Notes: generated by a model from the letters alone, not told the origin. A stretch of 64,000 nucleotides of DNA from an uncultured Planctomycetota bacterium (GCA_963823665.1 CAWGMQ010000010.1:1152001-1216000); one strand, 5' to 3'; shown: positions 6,201 through 61,705, counted from the first letter of the stretch. Translations and numbers: made by a program.

Positions 6201-6713
6201 CTGGCCGGCCAGGATCATCTTGAGCGCGACGGTGCGATCGAGGCTCACCTGCCGCGCCTCGAACACCACGCCCATCCCGCCGCGCGCGATTTCGCGGATG
6301 ATCTCATAGTCGCCGAAATAGCGGACGTGGGAGGGTGCCCCGGCCTCGGATGGGGCCGGCGCGGATGATCCAAGGTCGACCGTGGCATCTCCTCGAGGCG
6401 GCAACGTCGCCTCATCGTGGACCGACGAAGACGCCTCGCCGGGCTCCGGCAGCGTTGGTAGGGAGCCCGGTGCAATTGTCGGGGCGTCGGCGATACCGGC
6501 TTGTCCTGCCGCTTGCCGCAGCTCGGACTCCAACGCTTCCAGCTCAGCCGCCAAGGCGACCCGGGCGTCCCCTGTGAGCGACCCGATATAATCGTCGAGG
6601 CGCGGCTGGCGCCCTTCTCGCCATGCAGCCTCGAAGCGCCGGCAGGCTTGATCAATACGGCGGACCAGGTCGATGTCCAGGCCGCCGAGGTTGTCGCTGG
6701 TTCGGTGACTCAT
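3276..6713 (-). CDS. Ser/Thr protein kinase with TM helix and C-terminal WD40 beta-propellers
   Basis: RGGMGVV, HRDLKPAN, DFGLAK, GTPSYMPPE; about 14 'VAFSPDG..LAS...D.TVKVWD' repeats. Confidence 0.95.
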   Translation of the reverse strand: MSHRTSDNLGGLDIDLVRRIDQACRRFEAAWREGRQPRLDDYIGSLTGDARVALAAELEALESELRQAAGQAGIADAPTIAPGSLPTLPEPGEASSSVHDEATLPPRGDATVDLGSSAPAPSEAGAPSHVRYFGDYEIIREIARGGMGVVFEARQVSLDRTVALKMILAGQLADDNDVKRFHTEAEAAANLDHPGIVPIFEVGQHEGQHYFSMGFVEGQSLSQRLTEGPLPARQAAELIRRVSEAIEYAHQHGVIHRDLKPANILLDSNNNPRVTDFGLAKKIQGDSGLTGSGQIMGTPSYMPPEQAGGKRGEVGPAADVYSLGATLYALTTGRPPFQAATPMDTVLQVLSDEPVSPRRLNAALPRDLETICLKCLEKDPGKRYARAAALGEDLRRYLSGEPIVARPVTRLERAVKWTRRKPAIAALLALVAMVTALGLGGVLWQWRTAVRQTELAQRRLYDVQMNLVQRCWEDYNGTLLHQGLVDQLPANQGGIDRRGFEWFYWQRKMSEDHLTLRLGYTRISSLAYSPDGRRLASAGGLLKVWDAATGQEIQTFEGHSGHLTCVAFSPDGQRIAAAGDASNPHKPGGEVKVWGAETGREIWTLTGHTRKVSSLAYSPDGQRLASAAQDGVKLWDTRTGQEIQTFKGPSGIVTCVAYSPDGRRLATAGWDQTVRVWDAATGREIQTFKGPSGIVTCVAFSPDGQRLASCGWDQTVKVWDAVTGQEIQTFKGHSAIVNCVAFSPDGQRLASCGWDQTVKAWDAVTGQEIQTFKGHTDSVACVAYSPDGRRLASAGGGVNTPAELKLWDAQTRQETLAPQWQISEVNSVALSPDGQRVASAGRDGTVRVWDWVTGRETLTLKGHGSVYKELEGYYVDTNGKLTLKEHGGTVDSVAFSPDGQQLASAYRDGTVKLWNAATGQERVTLNGHTTRTQRPAAATSVAFSTDGQRLASAYGDGTVKVWDAATGQETQTLNGHSGRVIDVAFSRDGQRLASAGLEDGAVRVWEATTGNEIRTLELEIATAVDFSPDGQRLASAGLDGTVRVWDCATGQEALALKGTSSVFKGNFSVANAVLPSVAFSPDGQRLASASADGTVKLWDVVTGQETLTLKGHTSLVVCLAFSRDGQRLVSAGADGTVKVWDARPQ
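4391..4795. repeat. Near-identical 126-bp tandem units coding WD40 blades
   Basis: CCCTTGAA(G/A)GTTTGGATTTCC recurs every 126 bp (~4391, 4517, 4643, 4769). Confidence 0.9.
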
Positions 6714-17618: not shown

Positions 17619-20600
17619 ATGTCCGACGCTGAAGCCGAGTTGATGACAGTGTTTGCCGAAGCCCTGGAACGGACGGATAACGTTGACCGGGCCGCTTACC
17701 TGGACGTCGCTTGCGCCGGGAACTTGCCTCTGCGGGAGCGCGTTGAGGCGCTCCTTGGCGCCCACGAAGGGGCTGGGCGGTTCCTTGAGGGCGATACCGG
17801 CGGCTTGTCCGAGACGACCGTGCCCGTGAACGACGACGCGACTCAGGCGAGTTCCTCCGAATCCAATCTTGCCTCTGAGATTCCGACCAGAGGGGACGAT
17901 ACGGTCGGGACGGCTACGACTTGCGAATCTCGGGCCGACCTCGATCGTTCTGATCGATCGGTCGCCGGCCGGGTGATCGCGGGGCGCTACACGCTCATCG
18001 AAGTGCTCGGCGAGGGGGGCATGGGGACTGTCTATCGGGCGCGCCAGACCGAGCCGGTCAAGCGGGAGGTGGCGCTCAAGTTGATCAAGCTGGGGATGGA
18101 TTCGCGCGCGGTGCTGGCACGATTCAATGCCGAGCGGCAGGCGCTGGCGCTGATGGATCATCCCCACATTGCGCGCGTCTTTGATGGCGGAACGACCGCG
18201 GCCGGCCAGCCGTTTTTCGTGATGGAGCTGGTCAGCGGCGTGCCGGTCAATGAGTACTGCGACCAGAAGCGGCTGCCGGTCTCCTCGCGACTTGAGCTTT
18301 TTGTCTCGGTGTGCCAGGCGGTGCAGCACGCGCATCAGAAAGGGATCATCCATCGCGACCTCAAGCCGGGGAACGTGCTGGTCACCGAGGTCGACGGCCG
18401 GCCTACCCCCAAGGTCATCGACTTTGGCGTCGCCAAGGCCATCGAGTTCAAGCTGACCGAAGAGAGCCTGGCGGACACGGGAGCGATTGTTGGCACACCG
18501 GCTTATATGAGCCCGGAGCAGGCTGATCCGTCATCGATGGATATCGACACGCGGACCGATATCTACGCCCTGGGCGTGATCCTTTACGAGTTGCTGGCGG
18601 GTTCGCCGCCCCTAGACGCGAAGCAGTTCCGGCGCGGTGCCATCCTGGAGATGCTGCGAATGGTGCGCGAGGTCGATCCGCCGCGGCCGAGCACGAAGGT
18701 GAGCACGGCCGAGGCGCTTCCCAGCATCGCAGCCAGCCGCGGGATCGAGCCGGAGCAGCTCAAGCGGGTGCTGCGCGGGGACCTGGACTGGATCGTGATG
18801 AAAGCACTCGAGAAGGACCGCTCGCGTCGATACGAAACGGCCAACGGATTCGCTGCGGATGTGTTGCGGCACCTGGCGAATGAGCCGGTTCTCGCGGCAC
18901 CGCCGGGACGAATTTACCTGATGCGGAAATTCGCGCGGAAGTATCGCGGGCCGCTGGCCGCGGCAGGCCTGGTGCTACTGAGCCTGATTGCGGGGATCGT
19001 GGGAACTGCCTGGCAGGCGGTGCAGGCCAATCTGGCGCGGCGGGCTGAAAGTGAACGCGCCTCGAGTGAGGCGGCAGCGAAGCGAGACGCTTTGAAGGTG
19101 GGCGAACAACTTCGCGTCGCGCGTGACGAATTGCGGTACAGCCTGTATGCGGCCCGGTCGAAATTGATTCAGGGCGCTGGGATGAGCGCAACATCGCCCG
19201 CGTTCGGGAGCTTCTGAACGAGCAGGTGCCGAAAGACGGCGAGGGAGACCTGCGCGGGTTCGAGTGGCACTACTGGGATCGCCGGGCCCACAAAGAGCTT
19301 GGTGTATCTGCTCTGCCCAGATTCTTCGGGTTTGGCAAGTTCGCCGCGGACGGAGGCACGCTGCTCGGAGTGATCAAGCCGGATGATCAATCCAGCATGA
19401 TTCGCACAGAGATGGCGGGCATGTGGGAGTCGGGGACCGGGCGGCTCATGCAGGAGGTGGAGACCCACGACGCCCAGGAGAGAAAGCGGATCGGATTTTC
19501 CGGTCCCCTGGGCTTCACTCCGGATGGGGCCGCATTCCATCAGACGGCGAGGGAAGCCTCGGAAGCGGGGGCCGCGCCGCAGAACGTGACGTACTTCTGG
19601 GACGCGGCCACAGGACGGCAGCTTCACCGGATTACCAATCTAAGGCCAAACGCGTCGGAACCGGTGCTCGCCGGCGGCAAGCGGCTTTTGTGGGTGACCG
19701 CGAACTCGAAGGAGAAGGTGAAGCCGGTGCTGCATGCTCGCGACGTGGCCGCCGGTAAGGACATTTATCACGTGGACCTGCCGGCGGACGAGGTCGCGGC
19801 GCTCGACGTGAGCAAAGACGGGGCGACCCTGGCTCTGATGTTCGTCTTGAGCGAGCCGCGCAATCACTCCCTCCTCCGGATGTGGTCGGTTGCGGATGGC
19901 AAGCCGCTGGTATCGTGCGGCCCCATTGAGCCGTCCGAGTCGAGCGATGCCCAGCCGTGGGTTCGGCTCAGCCCCGACGGCCGGCGGGTTGCGGCGGGCT
20001 ATCGGGACATGCTGACCGCACAGCCGATGGCGATCTGGGATGCGGCGAGCGGCAAGGAGGTATTCAGGGGCCAAGCCAAGCTGCGGATCGAACCGGTATT
20101 CAACCCGGACGGCGGTTTGATGGCATTTGAGTCTGTGACATCAACGATCGAGGTGCTGGAGACGGCCACCGGCAAGCTCCGGCATACATTTCTGGGACAT
20201 TCGGGCGGACTCTGGGCTCTCGCATTCAACCGGGATGGAACGAGGCTCCATTCGTGCGGAGAGGATGGGACCATTCGAGTGTGGGACGTCAAGAGATCCG
20301 AGAGTCCCGATCCAATTGAGCTGTCCGGCGTCGTAAGGTTTCCAACGAACTTCGCGACCGGTGATTGGAGCCGATTCACGACCCACGCAGAACGTCGGGC
20401 AGGCGCGGCGAACACGACGACGACCATCGCGGTTTGGGACCGAGCGGGAACGCGGCTCGCGACACTGGAAGCCACGCTGGGGCACGAGGTGCATTCGGAC
20501 ATGGCGCACACGACCGCAATGGACCAATCGGGGCGGCGGGTCGCCTATGCCGCCGAGAAGGGGGTATTTGCCGACGGCCGCGATCGCCCGGAGGGGCAGC

Positions 20601-21346
20601 TCTTCGTGTGGGACGTGGCGAGGGCCAAGCCGCTGTTGTCGTGGGTGCGATGGGGCGGGTTTCATGGCTGCGCTCTCTCGCCCGATGGAATCCACGTCGC
20701 CTCGGTGTTCAATTCCGAGAGCCGCGATGAAGCAGCGCTCATCGTTTGGGACGTGGAAACGGACCGGGAGGTGCGGCGGTTCGATCGTCCTTCTTCCGCG
20801 GGCTACACGGACAGCAACATCGCCTTCAGCCCCGACGGAAGCCGAGTTGTGCTGTACGAGCATGGGCCGATACGGAAGGCAGACGTCTTGACGAGCTGGG
20901 ACGTGAGGATGGGGAAGGGGATCTGGGAACGCTCGTTTCCGCCACTCGGCCAGCAGGCCCCGTTGTTGGTTTATAGCCCGGACGGGCGGCGGATTGCCTG
21001 GTGGCACTCCGCGCTCATGGGCGCGCCTGGGGCGGTCGAAATCCTGGATGCCGAGACAGGCAAGCGAGTCGGCGCACTGCGCGAAGGACAGGTGATGAAC
21101 GTCAGGTTCAGTCCAGACGGCCGGCGGATCGCCACATCGCAACAGAACGGCGAAATCATCATCTGGGACGCGGAGTCTTTTCGAGCCCTCGTTGATCTGA
21201 AGCGGCCGGGGAGTGAAGGCCTCCATGTCTTGACGTTTACACCTGAGGGGACCGGCTATTTGCGCTTGCGAGGAACGGGAAGGCTATCGGGATCGTGGAG
21301 AGGGATGGGAGCCCACGAGGTGGTGGTGATCAGTGGTGAAGCATAG
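17619..21346 (+). CDS. Ser/Thr kinase-TM-WD40 protein, frameshift near 19180 and probably near the 3' end
   Basis: Kinase motifs in 17619..19217; DLRGFEWHYW and WD40 repeats in 19226..21346. Confidence 0.9.
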
Positions 21347-33492: not shown

Positions 33493-33567
33493 CGTGATTG
33501 AGCTATGGTTGCGGGGACACCATATAGATTGGTTGACCGCTGGCAGTGCGATTGGTACCCTTTTGCA

Positions 33568-34233
33568 ATGGCTCGATTAGCGCGTGTCGTTGCTGCTGGT
33601 TTGCCGCACTATATTACCCAGAGGGGAAACCGTCGCCAGCAGACATTCTTTTGTGATGAAGATTACCAGACTTATCTGGAATTGATGGGTGAGTGGTGCG
33701 GCGCGCACGACGTCCAGATCTGGGCGTATTGCCTGATGCCTGACCATGTGCATTTGATCGCGGTTCCCGAATCGGCGGATGGATTGAGACGCGCGCTCGG
33801 AGAGGTCCACCGACGTTACACACGGATGGTCAACTTCCGCGAGGGTTGGCGCGGACATCTATGGCAGGGCCGATTCGCCTCATACGTACTGGATAACCCC
33901 TACCTGCTGACGGCCGCACGGTACGTCGAGCTTAACCCGGTGCGCGCGGGGCTGGCGGAGACGCCAAGGCGGTATCGATGGAGCAGCGCCGCAGCCCATA
34001 TCCGTGGCCGCGATGACGAGCTCGCCACGGTCGGACCTCTGCTTGAGCTGGCCCCGAAATGGCGCAGTTTTCTCGCGAGGGTGATTCGAGAGGAGGACAT
34101 AGAGCTCCTTCGATCGCACGAACGGACCGGCCGGCCGCTGGGAGAGGAAGCGTTTCTGGCAAGGCTCGAAAAGAAACTGGGGAGAATCCTGAGAAAGCAA
34201 AGACCTGGTCCGAAGGGACGGGCGAAGAAATAA
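33568..34233 (+). mobile_element. Y1/HUH transposase (IS200-like, RAYT type)
   Basis: HYITQRGNRRQ, YCLMPDHVHL, GHLWQGRF, YVELNPVRAGL, RWSS; GGGGACAC upstream. Confidence 0.9.
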
Positions 34234-34247
34234 TTCGCAGACACGGT

Positions 34248-35060
34248 CTAGGAGCCCGGCCGCCATATGAGGATCTCGCCTTTGCCCGGAACCGACGCGT
34301 CTCCTATGAAACGGTTATAAGTGCCGTTTCGGACGTTATTGGGGATTGAGAATTTCAGAGCATCGAGCTGCTTGGTGTACAGATTCAAGAACACGGGATT
34401 GTACGCGCAGGCATACGAAAACGTCGGCAGCATCTGGAGTTCCTTGAACGAGACGATCGTGCCGCGGACCATCCAGGCACCGGTCCGAATCTCAGCGCCT
34501 GCCATGAGGAAAATCGTTCCTCCTTTCATCTGCAAGCCGGCAAAATCTCGCACAGGGCCCCGGACTGCGATCGTCCCTCGTTTCATCCGCATCCCGACTT
34601 CCAAGCCTGCAGAGCCGCCGATCAATATCGTGCCGTTTTGCATGCCGGAGGTGCTTCCCCGGTAGGCCGCTCCGACTTGACCGCCAGCATTGCCGTGAAT
34701 CCGGATCAGCCCATCGGTCATCTCGGCGCCGACCCAGTCCGAGGCGTTGCCCGTCACTTCGATCGTTCCGCCTTTCATGTAGGCCCCAAGATGCATGCCT
34801 GCGTTGCCGTGGATCGTGATGCTGCCGCGCGTCATGCCCTTGCCGATCCATTTCACGTTGCGGGCGTCGCCTCGAATCTCGAGGTCGTCATTTCCGTCGC
34901 CCTCAACGTCGAAAAAGTCATCGACGCGGCACTGGCGCTTTCCCAAGAAGACGGGTAGGCCGCGCACTTGATCGGGTGCCAAGCCGGCGATCGCGTCGGG
35001 GCAGAGGGCTTCGGCCTCTAGCGGAACACTGGGCTGTTCTTTCAGGGTGAAAACGATCAT
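34248..35060 (-). CDS. fwdC: Formylmethanofuran dehydrogenase subunit C
   Basis: PLEAEALCPD N-terminus, GXGXG beta-helix repeats, GKGEILI end. Confidence 0.93.
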   Translation of the reverse strand: MIVFTLKEQPSVPLEAEALCPDAIAGLAPDQVRGLPVFLGKRQCRVDDFFDVEGDGNDDLEIRGDARNVKWIGKGMTRGSITIHGNAGMHLGAYMKGGTIEVTGNASDWVGAEMTDGLIRIHGNAGGQVGAAYRGSTSGMQNGTILIGGSAGLEVGMRMKRGTIAVRGPVRDFAGLQMKGGTIFLMAGAEIRTGAWMVRGTIVSFKELQMLPTFSYACAYNPVFLNLYTKQLDALKFSIPNNVRNGTYNRFIGDASVPGKGEILIWRPGS

Positions 35061-35075
35061 GCGGGCAGACTTCGC

Positions 35076-36701
35076 CTATTTGCAGGACTGGATTTCCGGC
35101 CGTTCGATGCGTTCCAGCTCCACGGGGTAGTTCTCGAACGACATGGTGTAATACTGCTGAAACAATGGCCGCAAGTACGCCTCGATTGATTCATCGTAAG
35201 TGGGATGAACGACGAATCCGCGGCCGTTGCTGATGTTGCGGATCTCTCCTTCCTCGACCACGATCTCTCCGCCCTTGATGACGTAGCGTGGATACCGGAA
35301 TAACAGTTCGCCATCCGGCTTTTCGTTGTAGATGGTGATGTCGGCGTCGGCGCCCACACCCAGGTGTCCTTTTTGCGACAGCCCGAGGGCTCTGGCAGGG
35401 CCGGCGGACGTGATGATGGCAATCTCCGACAGCGTGTATTCTCGGTCGAGATCTGCCAGGACCGTGCGCCCGAGCGCCTTGGCGGGCAGCGCCTTGACGC
35501 GCTCCCGACGTTGATCCGCGTTCATGAGCAGGTGGATGATTTCGGGATAACGCCAGAAACATGCGCCGTTGGGATGATCGGTTGTGAGGAAGATTCGCCA
35601 GGGGTCGTTGATCAGCAACAAGAGCTCGAGGCCAACGGCCCATTGCACGGCGTTGACCACATTGCTTCCCTTGTACGTATAAGGGACGATGCCGCAACCG
35701 GTCTCGTTCTCAACGTCAAGGTTGCCCCATTTTCGGCCGGTGAGCTGATAGAGGAAGTGCTGCCAAGGACCATCGGCGGTGACCGTCACGGCGTTGCCGA
35801 ACAGGATCGCACCGGCATCGGCAGTCAGGTTGGGATGGGCGTTGAAATACTCGGCGAGCGTCGCGGCCTCGGAGCGCATCGTGTCCCAACTGTCGCCGCC
35901 GTAGGAATGGAATTGCAGATGCGCCATGTGCGCACGAGATCCCTCCAGGACCTTCATGGTCTCGAGGGTCGTGATGACGTTGCCTGGTGCGCCGAGGTTG
36001 TTGCAGTGCAGATGAAGCGGATGTGGCAAGCCAAGTTGATCGACGATCTGTGCCAGGCCGGCGACGATCGCGGCCGGCGTCACTTTGCTGTAGCCGGGTA
36101 CCGGCTCGAACATCGCTTTGGCGTCTTTGCCCCACTTCCACGCCGTGACCCCGCCGGGATTAACCGCTTTCACCCCGTATGCTTTGGACGCCCAGATCAG
36201 CCAGGCGACGACATCCTTGGCCCGTTCGGTTTCGCCGGCCTCGAGCAGGTCGAGCACGATTTCATTATTGGCCATGAGTACGCAGCAACCCTTATCCACG
36301 ATCGGAGTGTCGCGCAGCTCCTCATGAGTGTGCTTGGCGGTCAGCACCGGGACGGCGGCTTCGATCACGGTCGTATAGCCCATTCCGGCGTAGAGATAGC
36401 CGGTGGCGAACGTCGTGGGCGTGGGGCCACCGATTCCTGCACGACGCTGTGCGGTGCGGAGGAAGGGCGTGGCCTGGCGCTGGTTCTCAGGGGTCATCGC
36501 CCGCGCGAAGTTGAGCGCGGCGCCGGCGACGTGGGTGTGGATATCCACGCCACCGGGGAAGATGAACATGCCGGTTGCGTCGATCACGCGGCCACCTTCG
36601 ACCTCCGACACGATCCGGCCGTCCGAGATGCACAGGTCCTTGACCACGCCATCGATGCCATTCGCGGGATCATAGACCTTCCCGCCGGTGATTCGCAGCA
36701 T
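35076..36701 (-). CDS. fwdA: Formylmethanofuran dehydrogenase subunit A (amidohydrolase)
   Basis: VYDPANG, DIHTH, YGVKAVNPGG, HLHCNNLG, HLQFHSYG, TTDHPNG. Confidence 0.95.
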   Translation of the reverse strand: MLRITGGKVYDPANGIDGVVKDLCISDGRIVSEVEGGRVIDATGMFIFPGGVDIHTHVAGAALNFARAMTPENQRQATPFLRTAQRRAGIGGPTPTTFATGYLYAGMGYTTVIEAAVPVLTAKHTHEELRDTPIVDKGCCVLMANNEIVLDLLEAGETERAKDVVAWLIWASKAYGVKAVNPGGVTAWKWGKDAKAMFEPVPGYSKVTPAAIVAGLAQIVDQLGLPHPLHLHCNNLGAPGNVITTLETMKVLEGSRAHMAHLQFHSYGGDSWDTMRSEAATLAEYFNAHPNLTADAGAILFGNAVTVTADGPWQHFLYQLTGRKWGNLDVENETGCGIVPYTYKGSNVVNAVQWAVGLELLLLINDPWRIFLTTDHPNGACFWRYPEIIHLLMNADQRRERVKALPAKALGRTVLADLDREYTLSEIAIITSAGPARALGLSQKGHLGVGADADITIYNEKPDGELLFRYPRYVIKGGEIVVEEGEIRNISNGRGFVVHPTYDESIEAYLRPLFQQYYTMSFENYPVELERIERPEIQSCK

Positions 36702-36741: not shown

Positions 36742-38073
36742 CTAACTCATGGCCATCTGGGCTTCAGGGGAGGGTGCAAACGGGGGCTTGGCTGCAACGG
36801 CTTCATGAATCCGGCGGATGACTTCTTCGTCGGTGGGATAGGGCGAGTCGAGCGCCGGTCGAAGGGGCAGGGGGATTTCATCCATGCGGTAGACAGTGCC
36901 TGGAGCGCTGATTCCCGTTGCGGCCGTCGTTATGTGGACGCGTGCCAGGCGGCTGGTGTGCGTCACTTTGGGGTCGAGGACGATGGTGGGAATCCGGGCC
37001 AGGTGTTCAATTCCGGGTTGTGGCATGGTCGCGCCGGGATCGGCGCCCAGGATCAGCGCGGCATCGACATCGCCCCGAACAAGCAAGTCGACCGTCGAGA
37101 ATTCTCCCGGGTTGTAGCGCGGGTAGCCGCGGCATAGATTCACGCCGAAGGGATAGCCTGTGGTCCAACGCATGACCATGTCTGAACCGGTGACGTTTCC
37201 GTGTCCGCGCATGGGCATGGCGACGAACTTCGTGAAGGCGTTGAGCTCGGCCGCGAGCGCCAGCACGGCGGCGGAGTTCATGTGCTTGCCGCGGGTCATC
37301 GACAGGCCCATACCAAAGAAGATTACTCCGAAGCGGGCATTCTTCATCCGGTCGGCAAAATCGTGTAATTGCTCGAGGGAGAGCCCCGTTTCCTCCACAA
37401 TCTCCTTGTTCACCGGTTGGTTTTTGATGAGAGCCCTCAAAGTCGTGAGGACTTCAAAGTCTTTTCCCGGCTTGATTTGAAGGAACAGATCCGATGCTCT
37501 CTCGCTGGGCGTCTCACGAATATCAACCAGCACCATCGTGCGGCCCTTGCGGCCGTTGGGCACGAACTTCCCTTTTTGGGTGAGCGTGTACTTCGTGAAG
37601 TGCCGGGGATGGCATTCGGCGGGATTGCCTCCCCAGTAAACGATGAAGTCAGCCCGGTTTTTAATTTCGCCTAACGTACAAGTCACCTTGCCACCCAACT
37701 GGGCGGCGATTTCCGTTGGACCGTGTCATAGTGATGTGTGGCTATCGATCACTCCACCGATCGCTTCGGTGAGCGCCACGGCCTCTCGCTGGGCCTCGCA
37801 GGTGATATTGCTCATTCCATAGACCAAGGGCATGCTGGCCGCATAAAGATAATTGGCAGCGGCCTGCACGGCGGCATCGACCGAGGCCGGCTGACCATCA
37901 ATGAGCGAATCCGGGTAGAGCCGTTCGGCTGTGTGGTTTTTGAACCAGGACTCTCCGAGGCTGCACGCGCCCTTCGTTTTAACGATTCGCTCGGGCTCGG
38001 CATGCAGCTCGATATCGTCGCAAACGCAGCCGCAGAACGTGCAGGTCGCGTGCTGAACAATCTTCAGGCTCAT
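36742..38073 (-). CDS. fwdB: Formylmethanofuran dehydrogenase subunit B, probable selenocysteine at codon 116 (TGA 37726..37728), 443 aa
   Basis: CTFCGCVCDD..C Fe-S motif; DSHTSL-TGA-HGP in frame; TLGEIKNRAD, HPRH, MRGHGNV. Confidence 0.9.
37690..37707 (-). promoter_or_regulatory. Bacterial SECIS-like hairpin
   Basis: GCCGCCC-AGUU-GGGUGGC; apical loop begins 25 nt after UGA with G at loop position 2. Confidence 0.7.
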
Positions 38074-38181
38074 CGCAAAGTTCCTCAGATCGGGGGCCAT
38101 TGGAAATTCGAGGCGCTGGTTTGGCGGAGTCTTCCCTTATCGGGTCTTGCTTTCGCCCGGACCGGGCGGTACGACGAACGT

Positions 38182-38343
38182 TCAGCCCAGCTCGCGGCCG
38201 AGCAGACTTCCTCTGATCCGGCGCGGCCGATATCTTCCCGTCTCGATCATCTCCCAGGCCGGGGACTTCGCCGGTTCCGCTTCTTGACCGAGCGGAGCCG
38301 TGTCGGATCCGGCAGCATTGATCGGGTTTCTGGAAGTTTCCAC
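38182..38343 (-). CDS. Small ORF (53 aa) inside the fwd operon
   Basis: Strong SD AAGGGAGGT before GTG; fills the fwdD-fwdB gap. Confidence 0.4.
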   Translation of the reverse strand: METSRNPINAAGSDTAPLGQEAEPAKSPAWEMIETGRYRPRRIRGSLLGRELG

Positions 38344-38393
38344 TCTAGACCTCCCTTCTTTGAAAGAAAGCACAGTGCCTGTTTTTGCGAGCG

Positions 38394-38774
38394 TCAGGAT
38401 GAAGGCAGCTCTGCCGAAGGCTGCGCCGGGCCTTCGGGCGTGATCGGTTCAAGTTCGACTTCCCAGCCTTTGGAGGTGGGCATTCCCGTTCCATCCGTGT
38501 CCTGGCCCATGAGGCGGCAAGTTGGCGGGCCGTACGGCACGAATATCATTCCCGGGGGGACTTTTCCCTCCTTGCAATGAAAGACACCCTCGCCGGTCTC
38601 GGATCGGACCCGGACGGTGCCTCCCGAGACGATTCCGACCTCTTTCATATCGTCTGGGTGCATGATCAATGTGCTGACGAGCGCCTGGTATTCGGCGCTA
38701 TCTTTGCCAATGTTGATCTGCTGGCCTTGCTTCGTCGTGCGGCCCGCGTTCATGATGAAGCGCCTGGCCGTCAT
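38394..38774 (-). CDS. fwdD: Formylmethanofuran dehydrogenase subunit D (molybdopterin dinucleotide-binding)
   Basis: GRTTKQG, MHPDDM, GMIFVPYGP, TDGTGMPTSKG. Confidence 0.9.
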   Translation of the reverse strand: MTARRFIMNAGRTTKQGQQINIGKDSAEYQALVSTLIMHPDDMKEVGIVSGGTVRVRSETGEGVFHCKEGKVPPGMIFVPYGPPTCRLMGQDTDGTGMPTSKGWEVELEPITPEGPAQPSAELPSS

Positions 38775-50123: not shown

Positions 50124-53100
50124 TCACGGGAGGATACGGAGTGGATCGGAGGGAACGCTCGGGCCAGCCAGCACCGCATCGGCCTCGGCGCGATACTCGG
50201 CCAGCTCCTTGGCGTGTTGGGCTGAAAGGGATTTCTGCTCTCCCACCCAGCGCACCGCGCGGTCAAAGCACCCATGCGCCTCGGCGCGGTGGCCCAGCCT
50301 GTGGTGCGCCATGGCCAGGAAGAAGAGGTCGAATGCGGCGGATTCGCCATTGCCGGCCTTCAGGCTTTTTTCCAGCGATGTGATCGCTTCGGCGAACTTG
50401 CCTGCCCGGCAGAGTGCAATGCCCAAGGTGTTAAGGCTGTTATGTTCCCCCGGAACGAGCGCGACGGAAAAGGCCGCCAGCCTGGCCGCGAGCGCCGGGT
50501 CGCGCTGGGGCTTGGGGCCCGTCGCGAGTATCCAGGACAGGTTGTTCATGATGGTGTCCAGTTGGTAGATCGTGCGCACCGTCTCGGGATCGGCCTGAAA
50601 TGCCGACTCGAGCTGATCCAGAGCCGGCGCGTAGCGTTTGAGGTCGAGCAGGCACATTCCTTGATTGGCCCGTAGATCGCCTTCGAGCGGACGAAGGGCG
50701 CACGCGGCGGAGAAATCGGCCAGGGCCTGATCGAAGTGCTTCAGCCTGCGCAGCGCGTGGCCACGCTTGTGCAGGGCGTCCGTGTCATCCGGATGCGCTT
50801 TTAGCCGGTCGGTGTAGCGGGCGACGAGGTCCTCGGCCGGAACTTCCTGTTGCTGGAGGTGGCTTTCGAGTTGCTCGATCACGGTGCGGAGCGGCCCGTG
50901 GTCGACCTTGAGCGTGGGCAGGGGAAGCGCGGAGGGTCCGGCCGCGTCGTCCGCGGAATAGGGCGGCGAGACCCAATCGAGGCCCATTCCGGCCAGACGG
51001 CTTCGGATGACTCGCAAATCCCAGACGTGGACGGCCGGTCCATCTGCTGTGGTCACCACGAGCCGCGATCCGTCCGGGCTGAACGTCGCGTACGCGGCAT
51101 CGCAAAGGTCGGGGCTTTCCAGGCGCGTGACCGTGCGGCCGGTGCCTGTCTCGACGATGCGAATGAACTTGCTGTCGTCCTGGACGGCCAGCAAGCGCCC
51201 ATCACGCGAGAAGCACAGGCCGTGTCCGCCGATTTGCAGTTCCTCGAGCCAGGTGCCGGCGGCCCACAGGCGACACGGTGCCACAGTCGTAAGGATCCAC
51301 TGTCCATCCGGACTGAAGCGAACTCCGCCGTTCTGAACGCCTGGTAGTTTGACAACCTCCGAGGCGTCCGAGATTCGCCAGATTTGAACGCCACCGGCCG
51401 CGTGACTCGCTGTGCCAAGCCACTGGCCGTCGGGGCTGACGGCGACGGCACGGGCGTCGTCGAGCGGCTCGACCTTGAGCTTGCGTTCTGGCGTGAGAAT
51501 CGCGGCGTGGGTGTGGTTTGCCTCGGCGACCACCCGGCTCTGCTGGTCAACGGCAATCTCAGCACCGCTTGGCGGCAAAGGCAGCCGGGTTGGGGGCCCG
51601 ATCTTGACGACGCCCCGATCCGTGTCCACCTTCAGCGGCCAGCGCCACATGCCGAGCACGCCGCTGGTCAGCAAATCGCCCGATTCTTCGAACTGACTGT
51701 GGAATGCCAGCCCGATGCGCAAAAGCCCGAGCTCCGTGCCGTGGGCCAGGTCCCAGAGCACCACGCCGTGCTCCGTGCCGACGGCCAGAATTCGCCCGTC
51801 ATGCCGGATCGACGCGTGGGCGTAGTAGATTTCGTGGCTTGTGGCGTGGGCCAAGGTGCGGTATTCGACGGCTGGATTGACCTGATACGTGGTCAGTTTG
51901 CCCTCGGACGAAACGGCAATCCGGCCGTCCCGGCTGAATTCAGCCCAGGACGAGCTCGGGACGCTCAGCGCTAACCGGCCCAGGATGGCGTCCCAGAGCC
52001 GCAGACCTCCGTAGTTACCGACGCTCGCCAGCAGTGTGCCGTGAGGGTGAAAGGAAACCTTCAATCCGCCGGTGGGGATTTCGAGGGTTGTCCTCCGAAT
52101 CCCGGTGGCGAGGTCCATAAGATCAATCCTCTTGTGCGATGTGATCGCGAGTGTGGTGCCGTCGGGGCTCCAGTCCATCTTGCCGTCTCCGAGCGATGGA
52201 AACGATCGAACGACGCGGCCCGACTCCGCATCAATAACCGTGCAGGCAGGTTTTCCGTTCTCCGAGCAGACGAGCGCAATTGCGCCCGTCCGCGCGGAAA
52301 GCTAGATCCGAGGGTGACGGCAACGGCCAGCGCTTGAGCCGGTGACCGGTCGCCAGGTCGTAGACGTGGAGTGCGCCATCTGCCGAACACGCGGCAATCC
52401 GCAGGCTGTCCGGGCTGAACTTGGCCGAGCTCGACGGCAGAAACGGCCCCTTTTCATCGAGCGATTTCTCGACCCGGTCGACGTCCCAAACGGTCAGTCC
52501 GGCGTCGGGAGCGTGCGTGGTCGCGAGGTACCGGCCGTCAGGGCTGAAGCTGAACGTCAAGATGTCGCGATCGCCACGGGCATTGAACTGAGCGATTTGT
52601 TGATCGTCGGCGACGCGGCGTACCAGGATTGTCCCATCCAGAAACCGGAGCGCGTAGCGGGTCATGGCAGAGTCGAAAGTGAATAGTACGGCGCCCTCCG
52701 GCAGGGGAATGACCCGACCCGTGGCTTTCAGGTCAGGCAGCGCCATGCAGGCGATCGCAGCATCGCGGAGCAGCTCGAACCGCTCAGGTTCGAGCTTGAG
52801 CTCACGGCCAATCTCGGCTGCGTCGGCGAGGGCGTCAAGGCTCTCGAAACGCTGCCCCTTGCGATGGCTGAAGCGCTTTGCCTGGGCTTGCGAAAGCAGC
52901 GAATCGAACAACTTCTCGCGGGCATCGCTGAAGTGGATGGCGATCTGGTTGCGCTGATTGCGATAAGTGATTGCATAGACCGTCGAGATGATGGCCAGGA
53001 TCGTCGTGAGAGCTGCTGCGGCGATATTGGCCGCCGCAAGCTTGGGGTTGCGCTTGCACCACAGCCGGAACTGCTGGGGGTAGGAGATCGGCCGCGATCG

Positions 53101-54564
53101 GAGTGGCCGGTTTTCGACAAACCGCCGCAATTCGGCGGCCATTTCGAGGGCGGTTGCGAACCGGTGCGCTGGGTCCTTGGCAAGGGCCTTGAGGACGATC
53201 GTTTCCAGGTCGCGGGGAATTTTGTGATCGAGCTTACGAGGGGGCACCGGCGGGTCGTTGCCGATACGGTGAATCAACTCGAGCTGATCGCTTCCCTCGA
53301 ACGCGGGGCGAAAGGTCAGCAGCTCATAGAGCGTCGCACCCAAGGCGTAAATGTCACCGGCGCGGTCCGAGATACCCCGGAACCGCTCGGGGGCCATGTA
53401 CCGCAAGGTCCCGATCAGATCTTGCGACTTCGAGAGGTCGTCGCCCTCCTCGAACTTGGCCAGGCCGAAATCGGTGACCCAGATGTTACCGAGCGGATCG
53501 AGGATCAAGTTGGGCGGCTTGATGTCACGATGCAAGACGCCTCGCTCATGCGCGTAAGCAAGTGCATCGGCGACCTGGGCGCCCAGCCGGGCGACTTCGC
53601 GATAGTATCGAACATCGGGCTTTCCGGTCAGCGAGCTGGTTGTGCCGTTTTCTCGCACTCTCTCAGAATCGCCGGCGGCTTGTGATCTGGGAGGCAGGCC
53701 ATGCGGAGGACGGATCATGACTTCGGCCTGCCGCAGCTCGCGCAGGAAGCGACGGGTCGCGGCGCCATAGTCGCCTTCCCCCACGACCGGAGCGACAGCC
53801 TCCTCGGAAGGGGGCAAGGTCGCTTGCTCGCCTGGGTCGACGTCGGCGCCGGCGGACGGAAATTGACCGGTCAGGAACCCCAATGTGACGGTGTTCCTCA
53901 GGGAGTTCATCGCGCACCGTGCATCGTCTTCGCCGGCGATGTCATCGTGGGCACCCCGGGTCTTCGCGTGAACCGTCAGCGTCGCGGTATTCCCGTCGGG
54001 CACGCCTTCTTGTTCACGTCGGAGCTCGCGGATGTCTTCCAGAACCTTGTCCATGCTCTGCCCGGCGATAAACTGCATTGCGTAATAGCAGATGCCCTCG
54101 TGCTCGCCAAAGTCGAAGACGCTCACGATGTTTGTGTGGTGCAACCGTGCGGCGGAGCGGGCCTCGATGTGGAATCGACGGAGGTAGTTCGGGCGGTTGC
54201 GATACTGTGGGTGCATCACTTTGAGGGCGACGTGGCTGCGCAGCGACTCGCGGACGGCTTCGTAAACGACGCCCATGCCTCCTTCGCCCAAGTAGCGAAG
54301 GATCCGGTAATCGCCCAGCTGCGCGGGATCATCGCCGCGCGATGCCTGCGACGGCGCACTCAACGGCAAGCCAACGTCTTGTCGCTCGGGCTTGAAGTGT
54401 TCCACGAGAGCAAGCGCTGGAAACAGGTCGCGGATGTCGTCGGCATGATCGGGGTAGCGCTCGACGTACTCCGTAAGTGACGGATGCTCGCCCCGGCGCA
54501 GCCGGGCGGCGAATTCCTCGGCTAGCAGCTCGAAGGGATCGCGATCGGCACTTGTGTGGCTCAT
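50124..54564 (-). CDS. Ser/Thr kinase-WD40-TPR protein, frameshift near 52280
   Basis: GEGGMGVVY, HRDIKPPN, GTLRYMAPE; SPDG repeats; TPR tail (NTLGIALCRAGKF, DLFFLAMAHHRLG). Confidence 0.9.
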
Positions 54565-55250: not shown

Positions 55251-55760
55251 GTCGATTCGATCCTCCCAACATCATAACCGCGCGCTACGCGTGATCGTAA
55301 ACAGGCCGGCGGGGCGATTTTTGGCGATTTGTGGCGCGGTCTGGGCCGGACCAACTGGGAGATTCTCCTGGTTTTGAGCGACCGGATCGGGCGTGCTCCG
55401 CAATCGACGTTGCTCACGGCGGTGGTTTCAGGGCAAGGCGGTCGCGCAGGTCGCGTTTCTGTAGGTAAGCGGCTGGCTCGCTCGTTCGCTCGCGAGCGCT
55501 GGTCGGAGCGGAAGACGCGGAATTCGATTGGATTCGAGGCCGGCCAGCGGCGTTCTCTTTCGCCGGCGTGGCTGACCGAGCGTGGTACAGCTCCAGAGGT
55601 TGGGTGTCTGGGTCCCCTTTTTGTTGACGTCGGGGGAACCCGCTTGCAGGTTGCAGGTCCCGATGTTGCGAAGGATGATAGTGCTTCAGATGACCATCAG
55701 CCATCAGCGGCAAGCCGGCCGTCGACGTCGAGCGCCCGAGTTCGGCCAAGGTATTTGATC

Positions 55761-56255
55761 ATGAGCAAAACCTCGAATCCACATCATGATGTCTTTCTCT
55801 CGCACAATTCGCTAGACAAACCGACCGTCGAGGACCTAGGAGGGCGGTTGCTCGATGCCGGGATCACCCCCTGGTTCGACAAGTGGAACCTCGTCCCAGG
55901 CGAGCCCTGGCAGCGCGAGATCGAGAAGGCGTTGATGAGCTGCGCTGCGTGCGCGGTAATCATTGGTAAGGACCCTCTCGGTCCCTGGCATCACGAGGAG
56001 ATGCGAGCGGCGATTGCGCGGCAAGTGACGGACCGTCAGCGCAGGTTGCGGGTGATCCCGGTGCTGCTGCCCGGGGCGGGCAAGCCCGATGTAGATCGCA
56101 TGCCCCCCTTCCTGGCCAGGAACACTTGGGTCGAGTTCCGTGACTCGCTCGACGATCCTGAGGCGTTCCATCGGCTGGTCTGCGGCATCAAGGGGCTCCC
56201 GCCTGGCCCCGGCCCTCGCCCGAACCGGAGCTGTGCCCCGGGGAGCCGTCGCTAA
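55761..56255 (+). CDS. Stand-alone TIR (TIR_2) domain protein
   Basis: DVFLSHNSLDK, WFDKWNLVPGEPW, GPWHHEEM, RVIPVLLPG. Confidence 0.88.
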   Translation: MSKTSNPHHDVFLSHNSLDKPTVEDLGGRLLDAGITPWFDKWNLVPGEPWQREIEKALMSCAACAVIIGKDPLGPWHHEEMRAAIARQVTDRQRRLRVIPVLLPGAGKPDVDRMPPFLARNTWVEFRDSLDDPEAFHRLVCGIKGLPPGPGPRPNRSCAPGSRR

Positions 56256-56301
56256 TCGAGCCGCCACTCATCTTCTCACCGTGGTCCGCCAGGATACGAT
56301 C

Positions 56302-59300
56302 ATGGCCGGCATCCGCTATCATGTCTTCCTGTCGTATAACGAGCAGCACCGACTGGCGGTCGAGGAGCTGGCCCGGTGGCTGGTGCGCGAAGGTCTGACG
56401 CCGTTCTTCGACTGGTGGGACCTGATCCCTGGCGAGCCGAGACAGGAAACCCTGGAGCGTGCCCTGATCGCCAGCGCCAGTTGCGCCGTGGTGCTGGGCG
56501 CCGGTGAGGATGGCATTGGCCCCTGGCAGGAAGTCCAGCTGAGGACAGCCATCGACCGGCAGGTGCGCGAGCGGGCCGGAGGCTTCCGGGTAATCCCGGT
56601 GCTGCTACCCGGGGCCGAGTGGTCGGAGGACAGGTTGCCGGAGGCTCTGAAGCGGTATGAGCATGTCGCGTTCGACCAGATGCTCGACGATGCGGAGGCG
56701 CTGCGCCGACTCGCCTGTGGCATCCGAGGCCAACCGCCCGGCCCGCGGCCCGGCGCTGCGATCGTTCCGGGTGTCAAGCCCTACCGGGGCCTGCGGGTGT
56801 TCGAGGAACAGCACGCGGCCCTGTTCTTCGGCCGCGAGCGCCTGACGCGAGAACTCGTCGAGCTGCTACAGGAGCCGGCCGTCGGGGGCCTCGGCGAGCG
56901 TCTGCTGGCAGTGCTGGGGCCGTCGGGCAGCGGCAAGTCGTCGGTGGTGCGCGCTGGTCTGGTTCCGGCGCTGCGGCAGGGGGCGTTGGAGGGGAGCGCT
57001 TCCTGGCCCGTGGCGGTCGTCAAGCCGGGCGCCCGGCCGCTGGAGAGCCTGGCGGTCGCGCTTGAAACCCTCGGCCGGAAGGAGAGTCCCCCGGTCTCGG
57101 CCTACGACCGCGTGGCTCAGCTACAGGATGGCGCTCGCTCGTTGCACGTCGCCGCGCGGCTGATCCTGGGTGAGCCTCCCCGCGCCGCGCGGCTGCTCGT
57201 AATCGTCGACCAGTTCGAGGAGATCTTCACCCTGTGCACGAGCGCTGATCTCCGCACGGGCCTGATCGACAACCTGCTCGGTGCCGTCGCCGAGCCCGGC
57301 GGCCCGGTGGTCGTCGTGCTCGCGCTGCGGGCCGATTTCTACGGCCACTGCGCCGGATACCGTGGCCTGGCCGACCTGATGGCACGGCGGCAGAAGCTGG
57401 TCGGCGCGATGAACCCCGAGGAACTGCGGTGGGCGATCGAGAAGCCGGCTCGGCGCTGCGGCGGCACGGTAGATCCGGGCCTGGTCGAGTTGCTGCTCCA
57501 TGACACCCTAGGGCGCATCGACCATCAGTCGGGTTCGGAGAGGCCAGGGGAGGACTCGACCGAGGATTCCGCAATATCGTCGGCGCAGCCGGGCCATCTG
57601 CCGCTCCTTGAGTTCGCCCTGAGCGAGTTGTGGGAGCGGCGAGCGGGAAGCCCGCTGACCACCGCCGCATACCGGGAGATTGGTGGGCTCGTCGGAGCCC
57701 TGGAGCGGCATGCCGACGCCGTCTTGGCGCAACTGGGCCGGGAGGATCCCGCTAACGAGATGATCTGCCGTCGGATCTTCTTGAGCTTGGTTCATCCCGG
57801 GCAGGGCACCGTGGACACCCGGAGGAGCGCCGCCTACCTGGCCCTGGCCACAAATACCAGGGCCGAGCAGGTCGTCCGGACTCTGATCGATGCGCGCCTG
57901 CTGACGGCCGACGACGCGGAGCAGTCGTCTGCTACCGTCGATCTTGCCCATGAGGCACTGATCCAGTATTGGACCGAGCTGCGCCGGTGGATTGTCGCCG
58001 AGCGTGATGATCTGTTCGCGCGCGACCGTTTGGCGGACGACGCGATTGAATGGGCGACGAAGCGCGCTCGCCGACCCGACTATCTCTACGAAGGTGGCCG
58101 GCTGGCCCTGGCCCTCGAATGGGCCGACAAACATCCGGACGAAGCTCGCCACACCGAGCACGTCGGCGAGTTCCTCGCCTCCAGCCGCGAGGCAGAACGA
58201 CGCCACAAGCAAGACAAACTCGATCAGGAACGTCGCTTGGCCGATGCCGAGCGTCGGCGGGCCGAGGAGGCCGAGGCTGCGACCAGCCACCAGAAGAAGC
58301 TCCGTCAGCGATTCCAGGTCGCGGCAGCGGTCGCCCTCCTTCTTGCCCTTGCCGCGGGGTTGCAGACCTGGCGGGCGAATCGAGCGAGCGAAACAGCCAG
58401 AAGTGCTGCCAAGAAGGAAACGGAAGCGCGCAAGCAAGCGGAAATGAGTGCGACCTTGGCGGGGGCCAAGGCGGAACTTGCCAAGGAGAACGAGGAGCGG
58501 GCGACGACCCAGGCCAGTATCGCGAAGTCGCGAGAACTCGCCGCCTACTCCGAGGCGCAGCGAGATAAGCAACCAGACAGGTCGCTCCTCCTGGCGGTCG
58601 AAGCCCTCCAGTCCGCGATCACTCTCGAGGCACGCAATAGTCTCTTAAATGGCTTGCAATCCAAATCAAAGCCCGGACTCACATCGTTCCTTCCTGCCGG
58701 CTGTGAGGTTACGAGCGTAGCCTTCAGCCCCGACGGCAAGATCCTGGCCGGCGGATACGCGGTTGGCGGCTTATACAATGAGGGTGGCGTGGTGCTGTGG
58801 GATGTCGCGGGGCGGAAGCGCCTGGTCTACTGGCCGATAGATGTGCCCAGGGGTCGCGTCTCCAGCGTGGCCTTCAGTGCGGACGGCAAAGTCCTAGCCG
58901 TTGCATCCTATGACGGCGTACGAGTGCAAAACGTTGCCGACTGGAGACGCCTGGCCGAGCGCCGCTGAGTGAGCGCCCGCTACCCGTGCCTCAGATTTTT
59001 CGGTGGGGGATGGCCTTCGAGAGCGTGGCCTTCAGCCCCGACGGTAAGGCCCTGGCCGGAGGCGGTTCGTTCGAGGACTATGTAATTCTGTGGAACGCCG
59101 CCGGCTCCAAGATTCTCGCCACCCTCCCAACGTATTTTGGCAGCATTACGGACGTAGCATTTAGCCCCGACAGCAAGATCCTGGCCGCCGGATTCACCAC
59201 CGACAAAGTCGGCGGCGTGGTGCTATGGGATGTGGCCGGGAGGAAGCGCCTGGTCGAGGACCCGCTGGACGTGGTGGAAGGCTTGGTCGAGCAGGTGGCC

Positions 59301-59831
59301 TTCAGCCCCGACGGCAAGATCCTGGCCGTCGGATACATGCACGGTATCGACGGCGGCGTGGTGCTATGGGATGTGGCCGGGCGGAAGCGCCTGGTGGAGC
59401 GCCCGCTGGCCGTGATCGAGGGAAACGTCTGGAGCGTGGCCTTCAGCCCCGACGGTAAAGCTCTGGCCGCCGGGTTCACCAACGGCAAGGTCGGCGGCGT
59501 GGTGCTGTGGGATGTGGTCGGGCTGAAGCGCCTGGTGGAGCGCCCGCTGGCCGTGGCCGAGGGCCGCATTTCGAGCGTGGCCTTCAGTCCGGATGGCAAG
59601 ACCCTAGGCGTCGGAATCATACCCGGTCTCTTCGACGAGTCTGATGGCGGCGTAGTGTTGTGGGACATCGATCTCCAATCCTGGATGCATCACGCCGGCC
59701 GCATCGCCAATCGGAACTTCACCCGCGACGAATGGCGTGAGTATTTTCCCGGCCAGCCCTACCGCCCGACGTTCCCCGACCTTCCCGTCCCGCCGGAGGT
59801 TCCTTCTCAAGCGGGAGAAACACGCCCATGA
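56302..59831 (+). CDS. TIR-nSTAND1 NTPase-TM-WD40 NLR-like protein, frameshift near 58965
   Basis: HVFLSYN TIR; PYRGLRVF..FFGRE; GPSGSGKSS; IVDQFEEIF; LPLLEFAL; HEALI..W; WD40 repeats; RNFTRDEWREYF end. Confidence 0.9.
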
Positions 59832-60195: not shown

Positions 60196-60489
60196 TGCGG
60201 GAATGACATGCATGCATAAATGGGCGTACGCTCTACGGACCCTTCGGGAGAGGTTCGTAGTCTGAACATGCATCGAGTGAATGGGCCGTCGACCATTGAA
60301 CAACCAGGGATCACTCTCTGACGTGTTTACGTGATCACGTCTCGTCATACTGGTGCATCAGGGGAGTGATCCCATGTCGCCTTATCAGACGTTGGTGATC
60401 CGACAGAGCGCCTGGCTCGCTTTAGGCTTTGCGCCTGAGTCTTGTCGAAGGCGTTGTATGATCCCTGGTCGACTCGGCTCGATCTGGCC

Positions 60490-61705
60490 TCACTCCCCTG
60501 ACGATTGTGATTTTACCGCATGGAACCCCCACTGGATCAAGATGTCGAGCAGGATGTCGCCAAGCGAACAAGGGCCGTGTGTTTGCACACACCTGGCGTT
60601 CGACTTGCGCTTGACGACCCGCCACCATGTGGTAGGCAATCCGGCAGAACCGGCACGCCACGCGCACCCGCACGGCTCGCGGATCCCGCCCGGCCGCACT
60701 CCACATCTTTCCCAGAGCCTTGAAGTACGCGTTGCAAACGACCAAGTTGTCGGCGATCAGCATGATGGCGTTACGAAGCGTGCGGTTAGCGCTGCTGACT
60801 AAAGGACCGTTCGCATGGTCGACCTGATCGCTCTGGTATCGCGAGGGATAAAGCCCTGCTCGACCGGTAATCGACCGCGGTGTTGCGTAGTTCGATATCG
60901 GCCCCGCCTCGCCCGCGAACTCTCCCGCCGAGACCACATTGATCCCGGGAATACCCATGAGCAGGACATAGGGTGTCGTTGCCAGCAGTCCGGCGATCTC
61001 TTGCTCCAACCGGGCAATCCCGCATCCTTTGGCTTGCCGGTCATCGTCGAGTTCGGTCCAGATCCGTTGGTGGATGTCGGCGTGATCGAGACTCTCCGCG
61101 GCGCGAGCGGCCCAGGCGATGAGCTTGTGAAGACTGCGCTGGAACGGGACATTGCCCTGCTGGAGGATCTTCGTCAGGCCCGCGATGCCAGTCTGGCTGA
61201 GGACGCTGGCCGATCCCGTGTGTCTGGCGATCAAGAGGACGATATTGCTCTCGAACTGGCATCGAAGCAACGCGCATAGCCTTGCAAAATGATATCGAGA
61301 TGCTCTTGGATCTGAAAAATCAGCACATCACCCTTGCGGACCAAATCACGGCGGTGACGGACCAAGAGTTGTAGCTGGGCGTAGGGGGGTTCGAGGGGTC
61401 GCTCGATCAGGCCAAAGCCGTTGACCGTCGCGCGGTGCTGAGCGAGCAGGTCGGTGTCATCGGTCTTGTTCCCGTCATCCGCCGGCTGTCGGAAGTGTTT
61501 GGTGGTGCGACCGTGGATGGTGCGAGTTTCGAAACCCGCCTTCTCGAACATTCTCTTGGGGCGGACGTGATAGTTGCCCGTGCGCTCGACCGACACAGTC
61601 GAATCACGGATCTTGTGTTTACTGATGGCCTCCTTCAACACCCGCAGCGACGCATCGAAGCCAGGGCGCGTGTGTTCGAGCATCGTTTTGGGCACGAGCA
61701 CCTTG
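60490..61705 (-). pseudogene. IS110-family transposase remnant (5'-truncated, frameshifted, internal deletion)
   Basis: VSVERTGNYH, NKTDDTDL, GIPGINVVSA, AGLYPSRYQS, NRTLRNAI. Confidence 0.88.

Follow-up and report, generated by a model that had tools for sequence, protein, structure and literature searches.

Does the in-frame stop codon that divides a formylmethanofuran dehydrogenase gene mark a broken gene, two separate genes, or a codon for selenocysteine (Sec)? The gene in question, fwdB, encodes subunit B of this enzyme and lies in a 64,000-nt stretch of DNA from an uncultured Planctomycetota bacterium (GCA_963823665.1, CAWGMQ010000010.1:1152001-1216000), the whole of which is referred to here as the window. 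On the minus strand, positions 38073..36742 form one frame of 443 codons, interrupted once, by a TGA at 37728..37726 that corresponds to residue 116 in the context DSHTSL-U-HGP. The table 11 list of open reading frames (ORFs) cuts this frame into an ORF of 124 aa (37726..38100) and another of 318 aa with a TTG start (36742..37698). An initial annotation, made from the sequence, had proposed that the two halves are in frame and separated by this one TGA, and this proved to be so. fwdB is very probably an intact bacterial gene in which codon 116 is a UGA translated as selenocysteine.

The product obtained by reading through the TGA matches the NCBIfam family TIGR03129 with 490.2 bits, against a cut-off of 327.8 (485.9 bits in a six-frame search). 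It also matches the solved Cys-type FwdB structures over nearly its full length, with 375.8 bits for 8rja_B, 357.7 bits for 5t5i_B and 325.4 bits for 7bkb_H. Residues C11, C14, C18 and C37 align with the four N-terminal cysteines of 8rja_B, which bind the [4Fe-4S] cluster in the FwdB structures. U116 and H117 align with the C-H of the sequence S-v-C-H-G-P-s in 8rja_B, placing the TGA in the column of the Cys ligand, as the initial annotation had it, and giving the metal-ligand motif U/C-H-x-P; the motif listed for the FwdB family in Table 1 of PMC13188914 is UHxP. The frame is otherwise intact, with 57-94% identity to relatives across its full length. The protein is predicted to bind a tungsten or molybdenum (W/Mo) bis-pterin and to have formylmethanofuran dehydrogenase activity.

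The same codon recurs in relatives. When 41 related genomes were searched with the FwdB protein, 39 gave a match and 30 loci were aligned; five of these have TGA at the Sec column, seven have C-H-G, and 18 have neither Cys nor Sec, like the non-redox FhcB. The five TGA holders are the genome that contains the window (G000; 16.46 Mb in 12 contigs, 91.9% complete), its congener G001, and three genomes of another family at 76-78% identity (G028, G033 and G038). A scan of species-representative genomes yielded 207 relatives, and codons were counted in the best 80. At the Sec column, 68 of these 80 have TGA and the other 12 have TGC (7) or TGT (5), so that other assemblies share the TGA. All loci with at least 64% identity have TGA except L106, which has TGC at 86% identity. 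By their record titles the relatives are mostly Gemmataceae, Pirellulales or unclassified Planctomycetota metagenome-assembled genomes (MAGs). There is also a handful of bins assigned to Acidobacteriota, Rokubacteria, Myxococcota, Alcaligenaceae or Phycisphaerae, assignments that may be mistaken. Public reads were checked in the form of Logan contigs, none of which spans the whole stretch. An 80-nt DNA contig from an independent soil metagenome (run X2, record 13) spans both the TGA and the hairpin described below, no difference being listed for 37726..37728. Coverage by run X1 (share 0.34) is limited to 37764..38100, and the RNA-library contigs of X15 and X16 are fragments of relatives, 90-95% alike, which are no proof of transcription.

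Eighteen nucleotides past the UGA begins a hairpin, GCCGCCC-AGUU-GGGUGGC, which occupies 37690..37707 on the minus strand and is the candidate Sec insertion sequence (SECIS). Its 5' arm lies at 37707..37701, the AGUU loop at 37700..37697 and the 3' arm at 37696..37690; the loop starts 25 nt from the UGA and carries G at its second position, in agreement with the initial annotation, which had described this hairpin with a G in the first two loop positions. The TTG that serves as start of the 318-aa ORF, at 37698..37696, falls within the loop and 3' arm. The hairpin is under selection. Among 72 Sec-type sequences the codons +8 (GCC), +9 (CAG) and +10 (TTG) counted from the UGA have zero synonymous entropy, compared with 1.75 and 2.10 bits of codon entropy at the Leu codons -1 and +18. 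Variation at codon +7 (GCC/GCT) stays paired, as does that at +11 (GGC/GGT) with the exception of one sequence with GGG, and the outermost pair is free. Over the same 72-row alignment, 97.3% of the cells are paired, versus 28-57% when the 3' partners are slid. No hairpin of this type was found in the seven Cys-type relatives that were folded, and it is this absence, together with the frozen synonymous sites, that makes the case for the element. The bacterial SECIS model in the legend of Figure 2 of PMC13188914 allows a loop of 3-9 nt, a stem of 4-16 bp, an early G followed by G or U, a spacing of 16-37 nt and an energy no higher than -7.5 kcal/mol. The fwdB hairpin falls within all four published constraints, with its 4-nt loop, 7-bp stem, G-U at loop positions 2-3, distance of 25 nt and centroid energy of -14.6 kcal/mol. 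A TGA on the exact Cys column, the same codon in relatives and the invariant central codons of the hairpin together amount to more than chance.

The Sec machinery implied by this reading is encoded in the same genome. G000 contains selA (504 bits), selB (364 bits) and selD (381 bits), each over its cut-off, and a tRNA-Sec (75 bits), its anticodon being tca according to ARAGORN. None of the four observations that would have counted against the initial annotation was made. Across the 41 related genomes, selB exceeds the cut-off in 5 of 5 with a Sec-type FwdB versus 21 of 36 others, a co-occurrence that is consistent with Sec decoding and weakly discriminating, the genomes being kin. Of five further genomes reached via their loci, four have selB, including that of the TGC form L106. 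A second candidate selenoprotein of G000 is an FdhA-like molybdopterin oxidoreductase at C5:531591-534547 (locus L137), which has an in-frame TGA at C5:532014 in the context ART-U-HSAS and, behind it, a hairpin whose loop is GGUCU. The family match there consists of four separate pieces, owing possibly to a frameshift in the gene or to indels in the assembly. A second UGA in the genome with the same loop type was counted in favor of the Sec reading of fwdB.

Several observations weigh against this reading. The insertion of Sec at codon 116 is deduced from DNA alone, and the read data consist of fragmentary contigs only. In one MAG with a Sec-type fwdB (that of L057), for which no completeness value is given, no selB reaches the cut-off. 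In the 72-row alignment no pair of the fwdB hairpin shows a double compensatory change (0 pairs). Since none of the pairs varies on both sides, the shuffle control, with 500 of 500 shuffles as high, carries no information. The folding energy of the 57-nt segment is ordinary for its composition (z = -0.27), and an Rfam scan of 37500..37900 with E values up to 10 returned no family. Stability alone is no evidence for either hairpin of this locus, including the second one described below, in such GC-rich DNA. For the related gene of planctomycete P2, the S9 Table of Kim et al. (2016, PLoS One; PMC4807772) records 'SECIS present: no' under bSECISearch defaults.

Against these points stand the difficulties of reading the codon in any other way. 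If fwdB were broken, whether as a pseudogene or through a sequencing or assembly error that turned TGC or TGT into TGA, it would have company, in that the FdhA-like match on C5 falls into four pieces and an fwdB paralogue of G001 into two. This account is nevertheless close to refuted: the codon is shared by 68 of 80 independently assembled species genomes and by an independent metagenome contig, the frame is conserved along its whole length, and the synonymous sites of the downstream hairpin are frozen. It is extremely improbable, too, that the stop separates two polypeptides, an N-terminal Fe-S piece of 115-124 aa that ends at the TGA and a 318-aa piece that starts at the TTG. Gene callers give exactly such a split, and models of 307-323 aa account for 89 of the best 120 public homologues. 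Yet the split removes the metal-ligand residue and the next nine residues, all alignable to solved FwdB; the TTG lies inside the conserved stem-loop, the break coincides with the Sec/Cys column, and the Cys forms of relatives are full-length as a rule.

A further possibility is that the UGA is read by something other than Sec, such as a near-cognate Trp or Cys tRNA, or that Sec is inserted only when selenium is sufficient, the gene otherwise being silent while a Cys paralogue takes over. There is a stand-alone second FwdB in G000, at C8:1870556-1871794 (loci L052 and L142), which matches TIGR03129 with 441 bits and has the sequence S-L-C-H-A-P. Its neighbors are unrelated and include no fwdA, fwdC or fwdD; FwdA has a single match over the cut-off in this 91.9% complete genome. 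In P2, too, both a Sec and a Cys form were noted by Kim et al., who point to the pair of Methanopyrus kandleri that is regulated by selenium. Conversely, the full Sec machinery and the SECIS-like hairpin point to Sec itself. The Cys paralogue groups with a divergent FhcB-like planctomycete clade (support 95, long branches), apart from the Sec clade; it is intact only in G000 and occurs as two pieces in the same-genus G001, and no second FwdB match was found in G028, G033 or G038 with the window FwdB as query. Non-Sec or conditional decoding is very unlikely, and the paralogue might conceivably be a selenium-independent spare B subunit, a weakly supported possibility.

The distribution of Sec was placed on a tree from a quick IQ-TREE run (LG+G4, with SH-aLRT, the Shimodaira-Hasegawa-like approximate likelihood ratio test, as the only support measure) of 116 rows, none of them archaeal. 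Left out were L061, L103, L110 and L131 (frameshifted or short), L023 (from the genome of L053), L043, L049 and L050 (under 400 aa), and P0002, P0011 and P0063 (gapped or truncated). A single group of 70 rows (support 88) contains all 68 Sec rows, its two other members being L106 (Cys) and P0028 (Arg). Three changes of the Sec label are needed on the tree, and the tree neighbors at 63-73% identity have Cys, Ser or Thr. The simplest reading, which is not proven, is one gain of Sec within a bacterial clade followed by two losses. The initial annotation had spoken of an archaeal-type selenoenzyme recoded with a bacterial in-frame SECIS. Its in-frame SECIS was borne out, and 'archaeal-type' is too loose a term because Cys FwdB is common in bacterial genomes and because in this tree the Sec clade sits within bacterial forms that have Cys, Ser or Thr. 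L106, whose TGC lies at 4346-4348, is the sole TGC form inside the Sec clade, and the hairpin sequence is kept there. In the 4 kb upstream (L106:1-4000) there is neither fwdD nor the small UGA-containing ORF discussed below, and its genome still has selB (396 bits).

Most of the best public homologues of the window gene are truncated models. Of the best 120 public homologues, the 89 short models have 82-90% identity and correspond to the C-terminal ~70% of the protein, most of them being 318 aa long; the remaining 31 are full-length, at 60-79% identity. Among these 120 there is no full-length model above 80% identity. Two truncated models were aligned, and both begin at the TTG Leu position. 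Among the public rows Cys occurs at the residue-116 column in P0003, P0009 and P0017. In alignment A2, the full-length relatives at 60-71% identity include forms with Ser (P0004, P0005, P0006, P0008 and P0013), Thr (P0007, P0010, P0012 and P0014) and Arg (P0028) in this column. The NCBI model P0002 (417 aa, 79% identity) has a 26-column gap just past the Sec column, which looks like an annotation artefact at the TGA. The fwdB finding is thus mainly a correction of annotation, in that a widespread selenoprotein of soil and freshwater planctomycetes has been halved by gene callers.

The genes surrounding fwdB are those of its partner subunits. In the order fwdD-(small ORF)-fwdB-fwdA-fwdC on the minus strand, the operon includes fwdD (38394..38774, 126 aa), the molybdopterin-dinucleotide-binding cap subunit, which matches Pfam PF01568 with 49.7 bits and the NCBIfam FwdD family NF042908 with 82.6 bits, below the cut-off of 175. 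The amidohydrolase subunit gene fwdA (35076..36701, 541 aa; TIGR03121, 703 bits) and fwdC (34248..35060, 270 aa; TIGR03122, 269 bits) follow fwdB, which ends at 36742, 40 nt before fwdA begins at 36701. The arrangement with FwdD upstream and FwdA then FwdC downstream on the same strand is found in 50 of the 68 Sec-type loci, and FwdD is upstream in 63 of 68; of the loci lacking a complete operon, some end at a contig edge before the missing gene and others are full-length. Apart from the fwd operon no other gene of one-carbon (C1) metabolism was found in the window, and profile matches revealed no polyferredoxin gene (FwdF/G-like) in the operon. Elsewhere in G000 there are two Ftr/FhcD genes and one Mch gene.

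Following the established bacterial pathway, SelB carrying Sec-tRNA(Sec) would bind the in-frame hairpin, with its AGUU loop 25 nt past the UGA, and bring Sec to the ribosome, competing there with release factor 2. Sec, followed by His, would then replace the W/Mo-ligating Cys of solved FwdB. The Sec-FwdB subunit and the operon's other products, FwdD, FwdA and FwdC, are expected to form a redox-active formylmethanofuran dehydrogenase, which would perform the last step of a tetrahydromethanopterin-linked C1 route; the Ftr and Mch genes of this route are the distant ones just mentioned. The metal used, the catalytic direction and the electron partner of this complex can be inferred only.

A second conserved TGA lies within the operon. 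Between fwdD and fwdB, a small ORF at 38137..38373 on the minus strand contains an in-frame TGA at 38184..38182. Its likely start is a GTG at 38343 behind a GGGAGG Shine-Dalgarno sequence, which gives 53 codons, the TGA and 14 further codons; an earlier GTG lies at 38373. By tblastn the small ORF, with its stop at the same place, was found in 70 of 73 Sec-type loci, the three others having less than ~520 nt of contig upstream of fwdB; the Cys-type loci gave no match, and neither did L106. Across 68 loci the stretch leading up to the TGA has a nearly invariant core, G-R-[YF]-x-P-R-R-[IV]-[RK]-G-S-x-x-G-R-x-L-G, and the residues G, R, P, R, G, S, G and G of this stretch, as well as F at +2, are identical in all 68. 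No Pfam or NCBIfam family matches it. Public models of the small ORF number 51, most of them 53-aa 'hypothetical proteins', and all 13 that were aligned end at the TGA. Past the TGA, Phe at +2 is encoded by both of its codons (68/68), positions +3 and +4 are kept hydrophobic by way of 13-14 codons, and +5 is Pro in 63 of 68, a codon pattern that suggests translation beyond the UGA. Openness of the frame past the TGA (minimum 12 and median 14 codons in frame 0, medians of 33.5 and 23.5 in the other frames) is not discriminating. TGC or TGT at the UGA column was found in 0 of 70 loci, and no Cys homologue turned up in a search that reaches only relatives sharing 5-residue words; such a lack, uncommon among selenoproteins, agrees with a function of the UGA as such.

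Behind this TGA lies a hairpin at 38154..38168 (minus strand) with a stem of 5-6 bp and a loop of the form N-G-U-N-C, which in the window is GGUCC, 18 nt from the TGA. Its centroid energy is -10.9 kcal/mol and its folding is ordinary for the composition (z = -0.35). Pairing extends to 91.7% of the cells, versus 26-50% with slid partners. Four of its six pairs change on both sides (44 cells), one of them being U-A in 34 rows and C-G in 27, and the covariation score is 0.283, against an average of 0.153 for the shuffles, none of which (0 of 500) reached it. Changes from P to S and from G to D across the stem accompany the compensatory bases, which indicates that it is the RNA, not the peptide, that is kept there. 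The read-through stop precedes the fwdB start by a median of 29 nt (range -20 to 1366; 63 nt in the window). In 31 of 60 loci it falls within -20 to +39 nt of that start, often at the Shine-Dalgarno sequence. This spacing is no more than suggestive of translational coupling between the small ORF and fwdB. At L125:2620-3990, an insert of ~1.4 kb separates the two, and their adjacency is not universal.

One proposal for the small ORF, to which we attach only a minor share of probability, is that it is a selenium-gated leader rather than an ordinary selenoprotein. With Sec-tRNA and SelB at hand, ribosomes would continue for ~14 codons and stop near the fwdB start, opening or coupling fwdB translation; with selenium short, they would halt at the UGA behind the hairpin, and the Sec-requiring fwdB would not be wastefully begun. 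The Arg-rich conserved peptide, invariant UGA and hairpin could together form a natural sensor of Sec-decoding capacity. Alternatively, the small ORF may encode a small selenoprotein subunit, or a 53-aa peptide with a SelB-binding regulatory hairpin. In Escherichia coli, SelB represses selAB translation via a SECIS-like element in the 5' leader. A literature search for Sec-dependent leader ORFs found nothing relevant, and if fwdB were indeed gated on selenium supply, the small ORF would represent a new type of regulatory leader.

The remainder of the window can be described briefly. On either side of the fwd operon lie a REP-associated tyrosine transposase and an acyltransferase; the transposase (IS200-like Y1) lies at 33505-34233 on the plus strand, directly downstream of fwdC. 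A sigma-70-like promoter match, TTTACC-16 nt-TAGAAT, is located at 38931-38904 on the minus strand, ~130 nt ahead of fwdD; the match is to the consensus only, and 2 such matches were found in the region versus 1.1 expected. An IS110-family transposase at 60422-61701 (minus strand) is split into two overlapping ORFs. At 17619-21346, 50124-54564 and 55329-59831, Ser/Thr-kinase, WD40 and TIR-STAND NTPase genes appear as adjoining ORFs in different frames (e.g., 17619-19217 and 19226-21346). The window also holds an intact kinase-WD40 gene of 1145 aa at 3276-6713, and the split ORFs are possibly broken copies.

Compared with the solved Cys-type FwdB proteins, which the product matches over nearly its full length and, in the case of 8rja_B, with the same four-Cys motif and C-H-G-P site, the window gene differs in having Sec where they have Cys and in an operon without a polyferredoxin gene. 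Both window hairpins agree with the bacterial SECIS consensus in loop, stem, G-[G/U], spacing and energy, and depart from it in being very compact, with no bulged U. The E. coli fdhF SECIS element has a bulged U. A more distant homolog is FhcB of Methylorubrum extorquens (PDB 6s6y_B, 55 bits), which belongs to the same bacterial C1 pathway. Like this non-redox protein, 18 of the 30 aligned planctomycete relatives lack Cys or Sec, whereas the window gene keeps the U-H, the Fe-S Cys motif and an FwdD partner. The U-H, the adjacent fwdD and the score of only 55 bits speak against the window gene being itself a non-redox FhcB. The presence of Sec-FwdB implies that these bacteria have a redox-active formylmethanofuran dehydrogenase, beyond a purely hydrolytic Fhc complex. 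In archaea, Methanopyrus kandleri has a Sec FwuB and a Cys FwcB (Vorholt et al. 1997, as cited in PMC13188914 and PMC4807772), resembling G000 in the Sec at U-H-x-P and in the Cys isoform in the same organism. The two differ in that archaeal SECIS elements, according to PMC13188914, are mostly located in the 3' untranslated region (UTR) and carry a GAA_A bulge, while the window element is an in-frame hairpin. Decoding by an archaeal-type 3' UTR element finds no place here, as only the 40-nt spacer follows fwdB and the conserved structure is inside the ORF.

The closest known system is that of Kim et al. Sec-FwdB is listed for bacteria and archaea in the table row of a 2026 review, and the same row appears, asterisked, in a 2022 review (PMC9312934). 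Within the literature joining selenocysteine, Planctomycetes and formylmethanofuran, only Kim et al. was found to be on the subject. As described there, a Sec fmdB occurs in planctomycete P2 (Rhodopirellula) and on a Lake Washington fosmid, and P2 has an fmdD-fmdB-fmdA-fmdC operon and a full set of sel genes, with Sec and Cys forms in one genome. Sec-FwdB in planctomycetes was thus already published in 2016, the novelty implied by the initial annotation falls away, and the window gene is a further member of this group. P2, compared here by its description only, shares with the window the in-frame TGA, the operon order, the sel set and the coexistence of Sec and Cys forms. It differs in lineage, G000 belonging to family f1 and its relatives being titled mostly Gemmataceae. 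For P2, bSECISearch found no SECIS, and the available part of that article makes no mention of a small upstream ORF; the window locus has both. What the present locus adds is a concrete AGUU-loop SECIS, conserved in 72 sequences, where the 2016 study found none, together with the extent of the mis-annotation and the small UGA-containing ORF with its covarying hairpin.

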